From contig CAVQQD010000003.1 of assembly GCA_963714975.1 (NCBI GenBank), positions 448,001 through 512,000 of the forward strand: DNA of 64,000 bases, in the 5' to 3' direction. The translations under genes and the position numbers were made by a program. Source of the stretch: an uncultured Gammaproteobacteria bacterium. Lineage in GTDB: Bacteria > Pseudomonadota > Gammaproteobacteria > JAURND01. Below are positions 2,350 through 46,785 of this stretch, piece after piece. How positions within the stretch are numbered: the stretch's first letter is position 1; each line of letters begins with the position of its first letter. The notes under the pieces were generated by a model. It did no database searches. It saw only the letters and a program-made list of their open reading frames with translations, and was not told the DNA's origin.

Positions 2350-2931
2350 CTATCCAATATTAGAAAGTTTTAGCAGTCGAGTAATATCTTTAAAAATTCC
2401 CATCGGGTTGGTGTCCAGTGGATAGTACATCAAGACATTGCCATGTGGGTCAATGAGATAAATCAAACCTTGCTGGGCAGCAAGTTGTGCCGCTCCTGTT
2501 TCACCGAGAAATTGCCTCAGTCGTTGCGAAGTAGTGCTGAAATGCAGGGTCCCGGAGTAGACTTTATTAAGTAATTCACCTAGAGCAGGATCGGCATGCT
2601 CCGAGAGCGTGAGTACTGCACGTTGCAGACGAGCACTGTACTTACCTGTAGCCGTACGAATTTGCCGTAAGTAGTAAATTTTTTGCTCACAGTTGGCGTC
2701 GCAGCTGGTTTTGGGGTTGATATACAACAGCAACCAGCGCCCTTTCCAAGCCGTTGCTTCTACCAGTTGGGTAAAGTCTAAAGGAGGATCAATGAGTCGA
2801 CCATGATGGGTGGTCGCAAAAGATTTGAAAGAGTGGTGGTTGACCATCCAACTGGCTATGCCTAAAGGCAGGCCAAATAGCAGTAGCAGGCTAAGGATGA
2901 TTACTAAGGTTTTATTTTTCGAGTTGCTCAC
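2350..2931 (-). CDS. Membrane-anchored cytochrome oxidase assembly-associated protein (SCO/thioredoxin-like)
   Basis: N-terminal TM, CxxxC, YLIDPHGNVLMYY; position between SURF1 and ctaA. Confidence 0.7.
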   Translation of the reverse strand: MSNSKNKTLVIILSLLLLFGLPLGIASWMVNHHSFKSFATTHHGRLIDPPLDFTQLVEATAWKGRWLLLYINPKTSCDANCEQKIYYLRQIRTATGKYSARLQRAVLTLSEHADPALGELLNKVYSGTLHFSTTSQRLRQFLGETGAAQLAAQQGLIYLIDPHGNVLMYYPLDTNPMGIFKDITRLLKLSNIG

Positions 2932-3586
2932 GGCGTTTCAAGTTCAGGCTTATATAAATAATAATGATTATCGCAGCAAAAGAAAACCATTGTACCGCAT
3001 AACTCACGTGTTTGGAGGGCGGCATGTTGATGGGTTTCCATTCACGGACAAATCCGTCCGCTGCAGTGGGAGATAATAACACTAGCTGTGGGAAAAGCGG
3101 TACTTTTAAACGTTGTTGAATTGTAGAAATATCCAAGGCTTGCAGTCGCAGGGGCCATTGGTTGCTGGCATCAGCTATGCTACCCAGGGTAAAAGGTTTA
3201 CCAGGGGATTGATAAATATAGCCCACCAAGGTGTGACTGCTAGCTTCGGGGATTGGTGGCAAAATTTTTCGCTCAGGGGGGGCGGGAATCCAGCCGCGGT
3301 TTACCAGGATGCGTTGTTGTGTGCCTTGTTGGATAAAGGGAGTTAACACTTCGTAACCCATTTGGTGGTGGTGGATTTTATTGTCGAGCAAAAAATTGTG
3401 TTGGTTGTCATAATGTCCGATTACGCTGACTGGCTGGTACATCGCAGCACTATCCTGAGGAAGTTGTTCAATGGGAATGGCTGGTGCTTGCAACCGCGTG
3501 ACAAACTGTTGTTGTAAAATTTGCTTTTCGTGGGCGCGCGAAAGTTGCCAAAATCCTAAAGAGGTAAACAAGCTGGCTAGAGCCAA
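2912..3586 (-). CDS. SURF1 family protein (start uncertain)
   Basis: LGFWQLSRA, ILVNRGWIP, HVSYAVQWF motifs. Confidence 0.93.
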   Translation of the reverse strand: MALASLFTSLGFWQLSRAHEKQILQQQFVTRLQAPAIPIEQLPQDSAAMYQPVSVIGHYDNQHNFLLDNKIHHHQMGYEVLTPFIQQGTQQRILVNRGWIPAPPERKILPPIPEASSHTLVGYIYQSPGKPFTLGSIADASNQWPLRLQALDISTIQQRLKVPLFPQLVLLSPTAADGFVREWKPINMPPSKHVSYAVQWFSFAAIIIIIYISLNLKRREQLEK

Positions 3587-3863
3587 AGTGCCTAGAAAAT
3601 ATATGAGTTTTATGATATTTACCCCCTCCCGAACCCGCCGCCTACGGGATGCCGCCGGGCAACACGCCGTGCTTGTAGCTCTTTAGGAGGCCAGCCTTGA
3701 GGATTGTTCGCTCCATATTACAGCCTCAACGCTTTTAGCACTTGTTGACGCAATTCATATAATACAGGTTTGTGGAGCAAGCCGCTTAATTTTAATTCTC
3801 GTGCTAAGGAATTTTCGTTGCTATGATGCGAACTATTAATTAAAACTCTCATAAGGTTAGCCC

Positions 3864-4322
3864 ATGCTTAAAAATATTCAGCTCAAAATTATTGACCCGC
3901 GAGTAGGGATGGAATTCCCCTTGCCTACTTATGCCACTCCCGGCTCGGCGGGATTAGACTTACATGCCTGCTTAGATCATCCAGTCCCGGTTGCCCCTTC
4001 TGAAACCATCCTGGTTCCTACTGGTTTGGCAATCCATATAGCTGACCCTCACATGGCCGCAATGATTCTGCCACGTTCTGGTTTGGGTCATAAACATGGT
4101 TTAGTATTAGGAAATTTAGTGGGCTTGATTGATTCTGATTACCAAGGTCCTCTCCAAGTTTCCTGCTGGAATCGAGGTAGCAAAACCTATACAGTACAAC
4201 CAGGTGAGCGAATTGCTCAATTAGTAGTATTCCCTATTCTACGGGCTAAATTTGAAGTGGTGGATGAATTTGCAGAAACAGAGCGTGGCGCTGGAGGATT
4301 TGGTTCCTCCGGACAATTCTAG
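3864..4322 (+). CDS. dut: dUTP diphosphatase
   Basis: [32 protein letters not shown]. Confidence 0.98.
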
Positions 4323-10054: not shown

Positions 10055-10965
10055 AAGAAGTCACCAAGGAACAAATCCAAGCGCTATTTGCAACGGCACA
10101 ACAGTGGCTTACCCCCATTCCTCCCCCTGCCTTGCTTAAGCATAAAACGGTGGCTAATCTATTTTTAGAAAATAGTACCCGTACCCGCTGTTCCTTTGAG
10201 CTCGCCGCAAAAAGACTGGGTGCAGATGTGTTGAATTTTAATTTTGGGGCTTCTTCTCAGGCCAAAGGCGAGACTTTGTTAGACACGGTGGCAAATTTAC
10301 AGGCCTTGGGGGTCGATTTGTTTGTGGTGCGTCATGCCGTAGAAGGTATGCCAGCGCGCATTGCGCAGCATCTAGGTGCGCAGGCGAGTGTCATTAATGC
10401 GGGGGATGGTTGTCATGAACATCCTACCCAAGCCATGTTAGATGCCTTTACTATTCAACACTATAAAGGAAAATTTAAGGGTCTGCGCGTGGCAATTATT
10501 GGCGACGTCAAGCATTCGCGGGTGGCGAATTCTGTGATTGCGGCTTTGTTGACCCTGGAAGTGAATGAAATTCATTTAATTGGTCCAGCGGCTTTATTGC
10601 CACAGGTGCTTGAGCCAGAGATTAAAGTTTATGAAGATTTAACCGCTGGGATTGCTGACGCTGATATAGTGATGGTGCTGCGGTTGCAACGGGAGCGGAT
10701 GCAAGAAGGGCATGTGCCTAATCAAGAAGTTTATTTCCGTGATTATGGACTGACGGCAGAAAAATTACGCTATGCCAAGCCGGATGCCATTGTCATGCAC
10801 CCAGGACCGATCAATCGTGGGGTGGAAATCGCCTCAGAGGTAGCTGATGGCCCGCAGTCAGTTATTTTGTCGCAAGTGAGATTTGGGGTGGTAGTGCGGA
10901 TGGCGATTATGAGTCACCTCCTAATCCCCTCTGCCCAACCGTTTTTGTTGGTGGGAGAGGGTTAG
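10027..10965 (+). CDS. pyrB: Aspartate carbamoyltransferase catalytic subunit
   Basis: ENSTRTR, HEHPTQ, MHPGP. Confidence 0.97.
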
Positions 10966-10975
10966 GGAGAGGGGG
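10926..10975. repeat. Family B repeat overlapping the convergent 3' ends of pyrB and dedA
   Basis: CCCCTCTGCCC...GGGAGAGGGTTAGGGAGAGGGG. Confidence 0.7.
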
Positions 10976-11597
10976 TCTTACTTTTCCTCCCCTTCGACCG
11001 CCACGCCCTTAACCAAAAAATAAAACTGATCAACGCAGCAATTCCTAAGGTAGCGAGTAGTAATTCATACCAATGGGATTCGAGGGTGTTGTAAATGTGG
11101 TGCCATTTATTTCCTACGAAATAGCCAATGGACAGAAAAGTAGTGACCCAGATTGCCGCGCCGGTGTAGGAGAATAGGGCAAAGTGTCGATATTCCATTA
11201 AAGTAACTCCAGCCGCATAGCCGGTTAAATGCCTTACCCCAGGGATAAAGTAGCCGACCAGTAAAGTCCAGCGGCCAATCCGTTCAAACCAGTCATGCAC
11301 CCGCTGCATCCGTACTGCGGTAATGCCAATCCAGGGGCCAAATTTTTTAATGAGATAGGCGCCCGCCGTCTTGCCGATGAGATAACTAATCGTAATCCCA
11401 CAACACGCCCCCGCAAATGCGGCAATTGCCGTTGGAATTAGCTCTAGCTGGCCTTTGGATAACAAAACTCCTGACACGACCATTAATGTCTCATCAGGAA
11501 TGGGTAAGGCAAAGATGCCCAACATTAACAAAATAAACAGAGCAAAACTGCCGTACTGAGTGATCCAATTGGTTAATTCAGGTAAAAAACTTTCCAT
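10962..11597 (-). CDS. DedA family membrane protein
   Basis: [16 protein letters not shown]. Confidence 0.92.
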
Positions 11598-11689
11598 CCG
11601 CGCATAGTAGCAGAAATCCCCAGCGCAAGCGAGAGAGGGGATTTAAGTCCAGCAATTGTAAGTCACCACTTGTGTTAAAGTAGTTCCTA

Positions 11690-11850
11690 AGAGAGAAAAG
11701 GCTCCCTCGCAAGAAGGAGCCTGCGGGCGTGAGCGACCGGTCAGCAATAGGTTATACAGCCGTGGGAATCAAGGTACTCTAGCCCTAACTCTCAATACGT
11801 TTGAATAGTTCATTTGGGACTAAAGCTCCCGCTTACAATCGTAAATATCG
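11690..11850 (+). ncRNA. Predicted bridge RNA of IS110 element 1 (ends approximate)
   Basis: 5' hairpin GGCTCC..GGAGCC; guides CAGCAAT, GGGAAT, ATAGTTCAT, CTTACAAT match target and donor in the expected order. Confidence 0.8.
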
Positions 11851-11858
11851 AGGTTACC

Positions 11859-12812
11859 ATGAAATTGTATAGTTCTTTTATCGGTATGGATATAGGGAAA
11901 TTTAATTTTGTTGTTGCCTTACATGGAGAAAAGATCACGAAAGAGTATCCAAATAGCGCTGAGGGCATTAAGGATTTTTTAAAAGATTATGAAGAAATTT
12001 TACCCACAGCATTTTGTGTGGTTGAAACGACAGGGGGTCATGAAAAAATTTTGTTACTGGCCCTGCGTTCTAATAGATATGCAGTCCATCGTGCAGATAC
12101 TAGGAAAGTAAAAAACTTTATCCATTCCTATGGTAAAAAGGCAAAAACAGATGCATTAGACGCTAAAGGACTAGCCCATTATAGTTATGAAAGGTATCAG
12201 GAATTAGATATTTATGAACCTCCTGATGAAACGGATATAGCACTTTTTACATTGGTAATGCGTAAAAATGATTTAACAGAGATGCTGGTTGCTGAAAAAA
12301 ATCGCCTTAAATCGCCTAATAATCATGAAATAGTAGAAATAAGTTGTAAAAAAATGATTACCATGCTCTCGGAAGAAATCAAATTGCTCAATGAGAAAAT
12401 AAATGAGCTGATTGAAGGTGTACCTTATTTAAGGGAAAAAAGGAAAGTTTTAAAGAGCATTCCAGGGATTGGTGATGTGCTGAGCTGTGAATTGATTACT
12501 TTATTGCCTGAACTAGGAACACTGGATAGGAGAAAAATAGCTGCTTTAGCTGGGTTAGCTCCTCAAGCAAATGAGAGTGGCAAATACAAAGGATACAGGC
12601 GCTGTGGTTATGGTCGTCAAGGAGTGAAGCCAAAATTATTTCTCGCTGCCATGGCGGCAAGGAATTCAAATTCGCATCTAAAAGTCTTTTATGAAAAATT
12701 GGTTGGGTCAGGTAAAAAGAAAATGGTGGCTTTAACCGCTTTAATGAGAAAAATTTTAGTCATCGCCAATGCAAAGGTAAGAGATTTCAATAAAGAATAT
12801 AATTTGGCTTGA
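11859..12812 (+). CDS. IS110 family DEDD transposase/recombinase
   Basis: GMDIGK, VETTG, KTDALDA, SIPGIG, NESG (catalytic Ser loop), ALMRK. Confidence 0.96.
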   Translation: MKLYSSFIGMDIGKFNFVVALHGEKITKEYPNSAEGIKDFLKDYEEILPTAFCVVETTGGHEKILLLALRSNRYAVHRADTRKVKNFIHSYGKKAKTDALDAKGLAHYSYERYQELDIYEPPDETDIALFTLVMRKNDLTEMLVAEKNRLKSPNNHEIVEISCKKMITMLSEEIKLLNEKINELIEGVPYLREKRKVLKSIPGIGDVLSCELITLLPELGTLDRRKIAALAGLAPQANESGKYKGYRRCGYGRQGVKPKLFLAAMAARNSNSHLKVFYEKLVGSGKKKMVALTALMRKILVIANAKVRDFNKEYNLA

Positions 12813-12960
12813 AAGAGCACCAAGGAGGGTGCGGTCAAGCCAAATCGACAAGCCCGCTCAGCGGGCGCGTCAGTAGGGAGAAACCCTAGTTTAGGCTGGG
12901 GTTTATAGACTTGTATGCTTAAAAATTTTATTTTTTTAAAATTTTTAAGACATAGTTGAT

Positions 12961-13042
12961 TCCCGCTGAAACCCTGCTCGCCGACGGGTCCCCGCCTGCG
13001 CGTCACCCGTCGTTCAAATGGCTGCAGAGCTGGAATTGCTGG
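12961..13042. repeat. Family D palindromic repeat (remainder after IS110 insertion)
   Basis: TCCCGCTGAAACCCTG..GACGGG..CCCGTC..GGAATTGCTGG. Confidence 0.85.
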
Positions 13043-13119
13043 TTCACAGTAGACATCAACTGCTTTTTTTAGGATGATAGCCTGAGCTGCAACAATTCCA
13101 ACTAAATGAGGTAAATACA

Positions 13120-14034
13120 ATGAGATACGTAGAAACTCAATCAATTGAATTGGCGGAAGATAATGCTAAACGCTTTGCCTATTCTACTATGGCAGCAGCA
13201 GCGGTTCAGATGGGTCTATTTGCTTATGCATTAAGTACCTATGATCCAGAGCGGATCCCCAATGCATTTGGGTATTTAACTATGTGGCAATTAGCACTGT
13301 TAGCCATGACTTGCTTAGTGGCTGCAATCAAAGTGGCAAATATTTATCGCAACACAAAATCATCTGATAAAGATCCTGGCAAAAAACGAATCCACCAATT
13401 ACTTGCGCTGCGAGATGACCCCAATAATTTAAGAAGTTTGACGTTTTATGTCTCAATAGTGGCCAGTGCTTTATTTTGGGGCATATTGGCCAAGGATTAT
13501 ATAGTGGCGCTGGACTATGAGAAATTAGGAGTGAGTTTTGCATTCCATGGTTTGGGCTTCTTACTTTATTTGGCCTATATTTCTTACAACCGTATAGACA
13601 TTTCTCACAACACAGCTGATTGCTGTGCTGGGAAAGACAAGGAGGATCCTGGGGAGGAGGATTATGTCGATTTGGCGGAGAGCAAAGATGAGAGTGCGGG
13701 GAAGAGCAAGCAGGTCTCTGCATGGGATAAGTTCATGCAGTTCTTTCATGACCACCCCTATGTAAGAAATGGGTTATTTTGCGCTACTTATTTAGGTTTT
13801 TCAGTGGCTTTAGCAAAAGGAGGGGTAAACAGTCCTTTAGGTCAACCCTATTTCTATGAAGTGCTAGATTGGAATAATCACTTGTCTACTGCGCTCATTT
13901 TTGCCAGCATAGGATTAGTCGCCATGTTGGCCCTCACTCTTGCCTGTGGTTGGGCTCAAACCAAAGTACGTGATTGGCGGGATCAGGCAGAGCGAGAACA
14001 GTATCAGACTGTTGATCATACTGCTGGCAAATAG
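13120..14034 (+). CDS. Multi-pass membrane protein, FAR-17a/AIG1-like
   Basis: About 6 TMs with YLTMW, LFWGIL, FHG, FYEVLDW motifs. Confidence 0.55.
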   Translation: MRYVETQSIELAEDNAKRFAYSTMAAAAVQMGLFAYALSTYDPERIPNAFGYLTMWQLALLAMTCLVAAIKVANIYRNTKSSDKDPGKKRIHQLLALRDDPNNLRSLTFYVSIVASALFWGILAKDYIVALDYEKLGVSFAFHGLGFLLYLAYISYNRIDISHNTADCCAGKDKEDPGEEDYVDLAESKDESAGKSKQVSAWDKFMQFFHDHPYVRNGLFCATYLGFSVALAKGGVNSPLGQPYFYEVLDWNNHLSTALIFASIGLVAMLALTLACGWAQTKVRDWRDQAEREQYQTVDHTAGK

Positions 14035-19734: not shown

Positions 19735-19769
19735 CATCCTTGTATCTTAATTCTAATCACTCAATGTGG

Positions 19770-19950
19770 TTAAATATCCAAGGGCACTTGGATAGGGGTA
19801 AATATGCCGGTGACATCCTAAGGCATTAAGCCTGTAGAGGAGATTTTAGCAATTTACCCCGTACTTTATTCATACAGACCGGACGGTATCTTAGGACTTG
19901 AGGTAAATATCAATGATCCTGTATTCACAAGGTTGGTCCGAATAAAGCTA
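19770..19950 (+). ncRNA. Predicted bridge RNA of IS110 element 2 (ends approximate)
   Basis: 5' hairpin TATCCAAG/CTTGGATA; target loop closed by GGGGTAAAT/ATTTACCCC; donor loop closed by CTTTATTC/GAATAAAG; four guide segments match. Confidence 0.88.
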
Positions 19951-19982
19951 TCCAAGCTATTCGCAACATGTAGGATACTACT

Positions 19983-20948
19983 ATGAAGAAAGCATTTCTA
20001 GGCATTGATATCAGTAAAAATACATTTGATGTAGCTGTGCTAATGGAAGATAAGATAAAAACTCAAAAATTCAACAATAACGAGCAAGGCTTTAATAAAT
20101 TACTTGTATGGCTAAACCAGAAGGAAATCGTGTTGTCTCAAGCTTGTATGGAAGCAACCAGTATTTACGGGCAGGCATTAGCCGAATTTCTTTATGCTCA
20201 AGAAATCCCTATAAGCGTTGTTAATCCTGCGAGAATTAAAGGATTTTCTCAAAGTGAATTAGCCCGCTCTAAAAATGATATTCTTGATGCAAAATTAATT
20301 GCAAGATTTTGTAAGTTGATAGGCCCAGAATTATGGCAACCAACTCCTGAACCGATTAAAATATTACAGCAATGGGTTAGGAGATTGGATGATTTAATCG
20401 CTATGCACAGACAAGAAGAAAACCGATTAGAAGTTTCTGATCATTGTTTAAAGGAGCACATACAAGAGAACATTAGCCACTTAGAAAACAATATTAAGGA
20501 AGTTAAAAATGTCATTAAAAATCACATAAATAGCGATCCTGACATGAAGAAAAAAAGCAAGCTATTGCAATCTATTCCTGGTATTGGAGAAGCAACTACA
20601 GCGCAGATATTGGCTTTTATTGGGAATGTGAGTAAATTCAATAATGCGAAAGAATTGGCGGCATTCGTTGGTCTTAATCCCAAGCAACGACAATCAGGAA
20701 CCTCTATCAATGGTAGAGCTAGACTCTCTAAAACAGGTGATTCGGCTCTAAGAAAAGCATTTTATATGCCCGCTGTTGTCGCCATGAGACATAACCCAAT
20801 ACTCAGAAATTTTTCTATGCGACTAGAAAAAACCGGCAAACACAAAATGGTTATTATTGGCGCAGTAATGAGAAAGCTTGTTCATATGATTTACGGGATA
20901 CTAAAATCTGAAACCGTGTTTGATCAAAATATATTAAAATTAGCTTGA
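19983..20948 (+). CDS. IS110 family DEDD transposase/recombinase
   Basis: [29 protein letters not shown]. Confidence 0.97.
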
Positions 20949-20997
20949 CAGATGAGACGGTATCTCCTCGCCTAAAGGGCGAGGATTCCTACTGCGG

Positions 20998-46640: not shown

Positions 46641-46785
46641 CCAGCAATTCCCGCTGATGCCCTGATCCCTGACGGGTCCTGCCGCTGCGGCACCCCACCG
46701 TGCTCGTTCCTGCGCGCGTTGGGGTGCCCCGCAGCCGGCGGCAGGAGACCCGGTCGGGGATCAGGGCATCAGCGGGAATTGCTGG
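46641..46785. repeat. Complete family D palindromic repeat
   Basis: Long terminal IR CCAGCAATTCCCGCTGATGCCCTGATCCC..GGGATCAGGGCATCAGCGGGAATTGCTGG. Confidence 0.9.

Follow-up and report, generated by a model that had tools for sequence, protein, structure and literature searches.

Does the insertion that interrupts a palindromic repeat in this genome find its landing sites with an RNA encoded in its own left end, and is that RNA part of a bridge system separate from that of another element in the same genome? The question arose from an initial annotation of the stretch of DNA analyzed here (64,000 nt from an uncultured gammaproteobacterium, referred to as the window), which proposed that the insertion is a bridge recombinase element with an AT core, programmed against a host palindromic repeat and potentially orthogonal to a second element with a CT core, referred to here as element 2. 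The results presented below indicate that the insertion very probably belongs to the IS110 group of insertion sequences and uses bridge-RNA-guided recombination to move. The features of the locus are collected in Table 1.

Table 1. Positions of the features discussed in the text, numbered within the window
Feature	Positions	Strand	Basis or remark
Left target half CCAGCA and one AT core copy (11655-11656)	11649-11656	+	Outer terminus of host palindromic repeat
IS110-family insertion sequence	11657-12960	+	1304 bp; ends TGTAAG... and ...CATAGTTGAT; copies and flanks
Extended -10-like box (TG n TAAAGT)	11673-11681	+	Junction promoter consensus match
5' stem-loop ahead of both guide loops, after conserved AAGAGAG	11699-11722	+	Fold; orthologue hairpins by alignment reading
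Bridge RNA core: target-binding and donor-binding loop domains	11724-11847	+	Covariance model, stem covariation
Left target guide GGTCAGCAAT	11739-11748	+	Same as top strand of left target and core
Right target guide GTGGGAAT	11762-11769	+	Last 6 of 8 nt are the reverse complement of AT+TCCC
Left donor guide ATAGTTCAT	11805-11813	+	8/9 against right-end ATAGTTGAT; mismatch at donor position 7
Right donor guide CTTACAAT	11832-11839	+	8/8, exact reverse complement of AT+TGTAAG
Donor-domain basal stem, 3' strand (CGAGG)	11849-11853	+	Helix 4; Shine-Dalgarno-like GAGG 5 nt before ATG
Recombinase gene, 317 aa and stop	11859-12812	+	PF01548, PF02371, NF033542, structure matches
Right non-coding end, 148 nt	12813-12960	+	Three GC-rich hairpins, AT-rich palindrome, left donor half CATAGTTG and AT
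Right target half TCCCG, then body and far terminus of host palindromic repeat	12961-13042	+	
Element 2, second IS110 element	19741-20965		CT core from flanks and loops
Unoccupied 145-bp palindromic repeat copy	46641-46785	.	Perfect 13-mer target at each end

The limits of the element were established from its copies and their flanks. Sequence reading places the left junction, CCAGCAAT followed by TGTAAG, at 11649-11662 and the right junction, CATAGTTGAT followed by TCCCG, at 12951-12965; AT is found on both sides of the element, which makes the boundary ambiguous by 2 nt. Besides three full copies, the 2.56-Mb genome contains an interrupted copy and a left-end fragment of 163 bp. The left flanks end in CAGCAAT in 5/5 copies and the right flanks start with TCCCG in 4/4. 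The flanks of four copies have only AT in common, so that there is no target duplication beyond the 2-nt core, and an empty paralogous repeat is continuous through CAGCAATTCCCG. The AT core that had been claimed for the element is thus borne out by the flanks of four copies. The termini, TGTAAG... and ...GTTGAT, do not form an inverted repeat pair, and the left end (202 nt) is longer than the right end, for which about 145 nt had been claimed and 148 nt after the stop codon was measured. Public sequencing runs added little to the description of these ends: the best DNA runs shared at most 0.12 of sampled words, no RNA run was listed, and four public runs gave four contigs of 185-264 nt that all lie inside the recombinase gene, leaving the ends uncovered and yielding no joints, and the one raw-read run among them contributed no sequence.

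The target lies at the end of a GC-rich palindromic repeat, of a family dispersed in the host genome. The unoccupied perfect 12-mer CAGCAATTCCCG occurs 29 times in the genome, compared with 0.19 expected from base composition, and the repeat body follows within 40 nt after 18 of these 29 empty sites. There are 122 terminus-like 14-mers with at most 2 substitutions in the genome, as well as 14 complete palindromes of 85-195 bp with both inverted termini. Within the window, the 13-mer CCAGCAATTCCCG is perfect at 46641-46653 (+ strand) and 46773-46785 (- strand), so the empty perfect targets reported at both ends of that repeat are present as claimed. With at most 1 mismatch allowed, the 13-mer has 4 matches in the window versus 0.12 expected, a number that 0/100 shuffles reached; the far terminus of the repeat that the element occupies is a 1-mismatch target (13030-13042, - strand). 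The initial annotation had tied its proposal to the location of other copies in this repeat family. Three of the four copies with two flanks are at repeat termini, and the fourth, which lies outside the repeat family, has the same target core, CAGCAAT joined to TCCCG, so this check did not refute the proposal. With 29 empty perfect sites in 2.56 Mb, dispersed palindromic repeats can serve such elements as safe harbors.

The protein encoded by the element has both of the domains of DEDD/Ser recombinases, a RuvC-like DEDD domain at the N terminus and a Tnp domain with the catalytic serine at the C terminus (PF01548, E 3.9e-19; PF02371, E 9.6e-14). It scores 160.7 bits against the NCBIfam equivalog model NF033542, 'IS110 family RNA-guided transposase', for which the cut-off is 140. 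Residues 6-304 align to the structures of ISCro4 (9t56, E 9.4e-32) and IS621 (8wt6, E 4.6e-29), and a set of 6 orthologues shows no variation at D11, E56, D98, D101, and S240. The catalytic residues reported for IS621 are D11, E60, D102, D105, and S241 (Hiraizumi et al. 2024), to which the five invariant residues correspond, in the same order, as judged from the alignment to ISCro4, a close relative of IS621.

The left end carries, in order, four guide-like motifs at the positions where they had been reported, with CAGCAAT at 11742-11748, GGGAAT at 11764-11769, ATAGTTCAT at 11805-11813, and CTTACAAT at 11832-11839. The copy at C3:520424 has a left flank identical to the left target guide at 10/10 positions, and the last 7 of the 10 nt of this guide match the flank of the window copy itself. 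The TTACAAT of the right donor guide is invariant in 26/26 aligned elements. In most relatives the left donor guide consists of ATAGTTG followed by variable bases, often N-AT, and is not contiguous into the core. Therefore, its pairing to the core would need a bulge. Donor positions 6-7 (TG) are complementary to the CA that follows the right target guide, and the varied target position 7 is not matched by the invariant C that follows the right donor guide. The hairpin at 11699-11722 also scores as terminator-like on the - strand. The 3' strand of the donor-domain basal stem holds the GAGG that precedes the ATG. Folding of the RNA would therefore bury the site at which ribosomes bind ahead of the recombinase gene, which may in turn influence translation.

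No model in Rfam 15 matched this RNA, with 0 matches that passed the gathering score anywhere in the window and 0 at E<=1 within 11600-13100. When folded alone, the left end was no better than shuffled sequences (z = -0.75; 43/200 shuffles were as good), and by itself it would not be recognized as a structured RNA. Therefore, the case for a guide RNA rests on the relatives of the element. In a class-level genome search (E<=1e-30), 29/400 genomes matched, the source genome included, and there was no match in 3 other genomes of the source genome's family. Species-representative genomes were also scanned; of 600 candidate stretches, 548 proved to be relatives, of which the best 80 were retained. 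Among these best 80 of 548, most come from metagenome-assembled genomes, and the labels include Gammaproteobacteria, Legionella sp., Rickettsiales, Holosporaceae, Wolbachia, and Paracaedibacteraceae.

Orthologues that are 47-59% identical keep the ends TGTAAG...GTTGAT and the AT core, and their targets differ (for example, CTCGCA-AT-GACGG, GCAATC-AT-TAAYAC, TAGCT-AT-TCTAA, and ACGAC-AT-CTATAAG). The same two left-end stretches carry the target of each orthologue, with boundaries taken from genomes that have multiple copies. For a quantitative comparison of guides and targets, 26 distinct left ends were aligned and the 20 with both flanks in the fetched DNA were used; the other 6 were dropped because a flank fell beyond the contig or no right end could be located. 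The loop columns were compared with the flanks, with the conserved core left out. The 20 elements, which have 15 different left targets, matched their own flanks at a mean of 8.9/10 non-core positions, compared with 3.25 for 358 cross pairs, and only 6/358 cross pairs had 8 or more matches. When the targets were reassigned among the elements in 10,000 permutations, the observed sum was never reached. Two of the 20 elements score low on their own flanks (6/10 and 4/10), and for one of them, L096, the low score looks like a one-base alignment shift. The guide matches go far beyond what chance would give, since across the 20 elements the flanks of each one are found at the same positions of its loops.

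The stems of the RNA covary as well. Stem cells were paired in 98.0% of cases, compared with 90.5% in shuffles and 39-46% when the partner was slid, and 20 of the 35 stem pairs have compensatory changes; 0/500 shuffles reached the observed values. In helix 4, the basal stem of the donor domain, 96% of cells are paired and 3 of the 7 pairs are compensatory. A covariance model was built from 25 orthologues without the window sequence (129 positions, with the 3' strand of the basal stem omitted). This leave-one-out model matched 11724-11847 at 113.1 bits (E 1.2e-23), which is its sole match at E<=1 in the 64-kb window, and in the whole genome it matched five sites, all of them copies of the element. 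An additional candidate, helix 6, in which GTTG and CAAT of the two donor guides would pair with each other, showed no covariation (3 of its 4 pairs never vary) and was left out of the model. The covariation analysis across homologs that had been suggested as a check therefore yields both stems that covary and loops that track their own flanks in 20 relatives. Together with the protein families and the covariance model, this bears out the claim of an IS110-type element with a bridge RNA in its left end, just as the 29 empty perfect 12-mers bear out the claim that its guides match the terminus of a palindromic repeat.

By analogy with the published mechanism of the family, from which the term 'bridge RNA' and the guide labels are taken, the left end would encode a structured RNA that is about 160-170 nt long and contains two internal loops. 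The layout matches the scheme published for IS621 (Durrant et al. 2024). In each loop the 5' side repeats the top strand to the left of the core and would thus pair with the bottom strand, and the 3' side is the complement of the top strand on the other side of the core. In the target loop, GGTCAGCAAT would pair with the bottom strand of CAGCA-AT and GTGGGAAT with the top strand of AT-TCCC; in the donor loop, ATAGTTCAT and CTTACAAT match the right and left ends as they would be joined, CATAGTTG-AT-TGTAAG. The RNA-bound DEDD/Ser recombinase would then exchange strands at the common AT core, and a circular form would be inserted without target duplication beyond the core. Because the programmed target is the terminus of a repeat family, such an element would be offered dozens of nearly identical sites to land in outside genes.

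A sigma-70-like promoter would be completed only once the ends of the element are joined. Five right-end bases and one left-end base (12956-12960 and 11657) would form a -35-like TTGATT ahead of the extended -10-like box, and the same combination of -35, spacer, and -10 was, as a pattern match, the best sigma-70-like match on the in silico junctions of 21/21 elements, with a spacer of 18 nt here and 17 nt in the other 20. No promoter-like site was found upstream of the RNA on the + strand of the integrated copy. This pattern fits the promoter that is reported to be completed at the circle junction in the IS110 family (Durrant et al. 2024), as well as the weak expression of integrated IS621 described in a published abstract. 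If the promoter is complete only at the joined ends, then the RNA and the recombinase would be made mainly from the excised circle.

The right end, which would supply most of the -35 sequence, folds strongly (z = -5.52, with 0/200 shuffles as good). Outside the element copies, only 15-20-nt AT-rich matches to it were found in the genome. Two candidate identities were rejected: a host repeat, because the sequence is confined to copies of the element, and a second guide RNA, because no target- or donor-like motifs were seen on reading. We suspect that the right end provides terminators or insulation, plus an AT-rich stretch upstream of the junction promoter.

Element 2 has five copies in the genome. 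Its target is GACATC-CT-CCTC, its donor is GACGGTAT-CT-TGTATC, and its ends are TGTATC and GGTATCT; the claim that its core is CT, and thus differs from AT, held up in both its flanks and its loops. The two elements might nonetheless form one interacting system, in which either recombinase uses the RNA of the other or its sites. Both proteins belong to one NCBIfam family, and the RNAs have a common loop architecture. Furthermore, the core T is reported to be almost invariant and the first base less conserved, with AT, GT, and TT all working for IS621 (Hiraizumi et al. 2024). Because IS621 thus tolerates AT in place of CT, the difference between the AT and CT cores gives no orthogonality by itself. 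However, the recombinases are only 30% identical, the covariance model for the RNA clade of the element gives no match at the left end of element 2 at E<=1, and most positions of the donor ends and targets are different in the two elements. We therefore consider cross-use unlikely, though it is the most serious of the alternatives, and judge orthogonality of the element to element 2 to be plausible from these sequence comparisons.

A broader reading is that the two elements are a natural, mutually orthogonal pair of bridge recombinases, each with its own palindromic repeat family, to whose terminus or hairpin it homes. The same reading includes two departures from IS621, namely a left donor guide that is mostly non-contiguous and a buried ribosome-binding site, as well as a spread of the element's clade among intracellular bacteria of several classes. 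This joint reading is offered tentatively, with confidence that falls a little short of even. If the elements do not cross-react, they would provide a ready-made two-channel set for programmable recombination. The presence of an AT-core and a CT-core system in one genome is also a simple test bed for insulation between natural bridge systems.

It is also possible, but improbable, that the element is a recently dead relic, with guides that are real but no longer mobilize it. The left donor guide has a C opposite the donor G, in a column that is G in 25/26 aligned elements, with the window sequence as the sole exception. In addition, the window copy differs from the other three copies by a single base, a private G-to-A at element position 138, which falls in the basal stem of the donor domain and would weaken it. 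The 163-bp fragment and the interrupted copy, in which a right-end hairpin is split by another insertion sequence (about 1.4 kb, with an rve integrase gene), could likewise be taken as signs of decay. However, position 7 of the left donor of IS621 is reported to be tolerant of mismatches (Durrant et al. 2024). The three full copies have 100% rounded identity, the two outside the window are identical to each other, and the 317-aa reading frames are intact. Near-identical copies with intact frames point to recent transposition with the same guide, which suggests that the element has been active.

That the protein or the hairpin structure of the repeat mainly chooses the target, with the left-end matches secondary, is very improbable: the target does adjoin a GC-rich palindrome, and for ISPpu10 a 2026 preprint describes a gain in specificity from a stem-loop at the target, but the orthologues use 15 different left 6-mers, some of them not in palindromes (for example, the copies of orthologue G198 lie inside an approximately 87%-identical repeated region), the loop sequence changes with the target in each case, and one of the four two-flank copies occupies the same 12-nt core site outside the repeat family. 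The target hairpin may make a structural contribution on top of pairing.

By every feature that can be tested in sequence, the element is a member of the IS110 group. Like IS621 and ISCro4/IS622, it has both protein domains, with D, E, D, D, and S at the catalytic positions. It also shares features reported for those systems, namely a left-end bridge RNA whose target and donor loops each read the two strands on either side of a 2-nt core, a T as the second base of that core, and a repeated palindromic target, as in REP targeting. Those systems are reported to complete a promoter at the circle junction, where the element has a candidate promoter by pattern match. The differences are that the protein match is distant, over about 300 residues, that IS621 has a CT core whereas the element has AT, with ends TGTAAG/GTTGAT and a right end of 148 nt, and that the left donor guide is contiguous into the core in the scheme reported for IS621 but not in most members of the element's clade. 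None of the papers searched had 'AT core' together with IS110 terms. The AT core is not novel, because it fits the reported rule of T at position 2 and IS621 is reported to accept AT.

Elements with the same donor type are already represented in published collections. The same 14-nt donor junction is present 7 times in supplementary file 4 and at least 6 times in supplementary file 3 of Durrant et al. (2024), whose supplements also contain two passages with left ends resembling those of the element's clade. The donor type of element 2 is likewise present in the supplements of that study. The names 'Wolbachia' and 'Legionella' were not found in the searched text of its supplementary files.

Targeting of palindromic repeats by IS110 elements is also established in published work. 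For example, all copies of ISPpu10/ISPpu9 in Pseudomonas putida are reported to lie in one conserved intergenic repeat adjoining a GC-rich stem-loop, a situation like that of the element, which differs in its host and its repeat. The IS1111 group (IS1111, IS4321/IS5075) shares the DEDD recombinase superfamily and is reported to home to the terminal repeats of other elements. However, members of that group are described as having a long non-coding end and bridge RNA on the right, as well as subterminal inverted repeats of 7-17 bp, whereas in the element the RNA model matches the left end only and the right end is shorter than the left. Membership in the IS1111 group was therefore rejected, with the RNA in the left end and no guide-like motifs seen in the right end.

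Thus, the observation in the initial annotation is confirmed, its interpretation held up wherever sequence could test it, and the novelty claimed for it was overstated. The element is an ordinary IS110 family member in a good state of preservation. It is useful as a clean, well-supported natural example rather than a discovery: a single genome shows its ends, core, guides, target family, and vacant landing sites, and 20 relatives display the guide-target code directly. The known mechanism is unchanged, and to it the element adds an AT-core bridge system of about 1.3 kb from an uncultured gammaproteobacterium, found in the same genome as a CT-core system.

In each of the 26 elements aligned, the recombinase gene's Shine-Dalgarno-like GAGG lay within the stem at the base of the donor-loop domain. 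Once folded, the guide RNA is predicted to occlude initiation of recombinase translation.

The right non-coding end of the main element folded much more strongly than shuffled sequences did (z = -5.52); it contains three hairpins rich in GC, together with an AT-rich palindrome of 32 nt. Total lengths of relatives of the element ranged from 1180 to 1469 bp, and therefore the right non-coding end is variable within the clade. The fourth copy in the host genome was interrupted within the right-end hairpin GCCCGCTCAGCGGGC by roughly 1.4 kb of inserted DNA; the 282-aa protein encoded there contained rve integrase-core domains and was IS3-like according to Pfam. The main element and its repeat were flanked on one side by a gene for a VTT/DedA-domain membrane protein and on the other by one encoding a protein of 304 aa; these two genes are divergently transcribed, both pointing away from the insertion.

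Features of the main element, its flanks, its further copies, and element 2 (window coordinates unless a contig is given)
Feature	Position	Strand	Remark
VTT/DedA-domain membrane protein gene	10962-11597	-	
Region containing the Shine-Dalgarno-like GAGG of recombinase gene	11849-11861		
Right non-coding end of main element	12813-12960		
304-aa protein gene	13120-14034	+	No Pfam match above cut-off
Interrupted fourth copy of main element	G000:C3:402655-405374		Locus L004, about 2715-4116
Left-end fragment of main element	G000:C3:400238-400421		Locus L005; 163 bp, 96% identical
Element 2 (IS110, CT core)	19741-20965		1225 bp
GACATCCT, element 2 left end	19812		Matches own left flank
GTAGAGGAG, element 2 left end	19834		Matches right flank of one copy, CT-CCTCTAC
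GACGGTATCT, element 2 left end	19882		Matches own right end

The left-end fragment carried variant guides: a G in place of T in the left target guide, GAGAAT rather than GGGAAT as the right target guide, and an A at the mismatched position of the left donor guide. Among the contexts of genome-wide target matches, some repeat termini in the host genome read CAGCAATTCTC. Because such termini occur in the genome, the fragment may represent an older variant of the element with guides tuned to a variant repeat terminus.

Element 2, the second IS110 element of this genome, has a right end of just 17 nt. Three of its four full copies were followed by the short hairpin repeat CCTCGCCCTAAAGGGCGAGG.

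The reverse complement of the main element's target and repeat terminus, CAGCGGGAATTGCTGG, was also present in another genome of the same class (G123, locus L023), where it adjoins, on the upstream side, a relative of the recombinase gene that is truncated at the 5' end. Different genomes may have the repeat family or its terminus in common. The orthologue in genome G198 targets a site within a multi-copy sequence, which is probably coding, and not a palindromic repeat. All four of its copies (loci L021 and L054 to L056) were found at the identical point of the repeated region, which was about 87% identical over about 2.7 kb.
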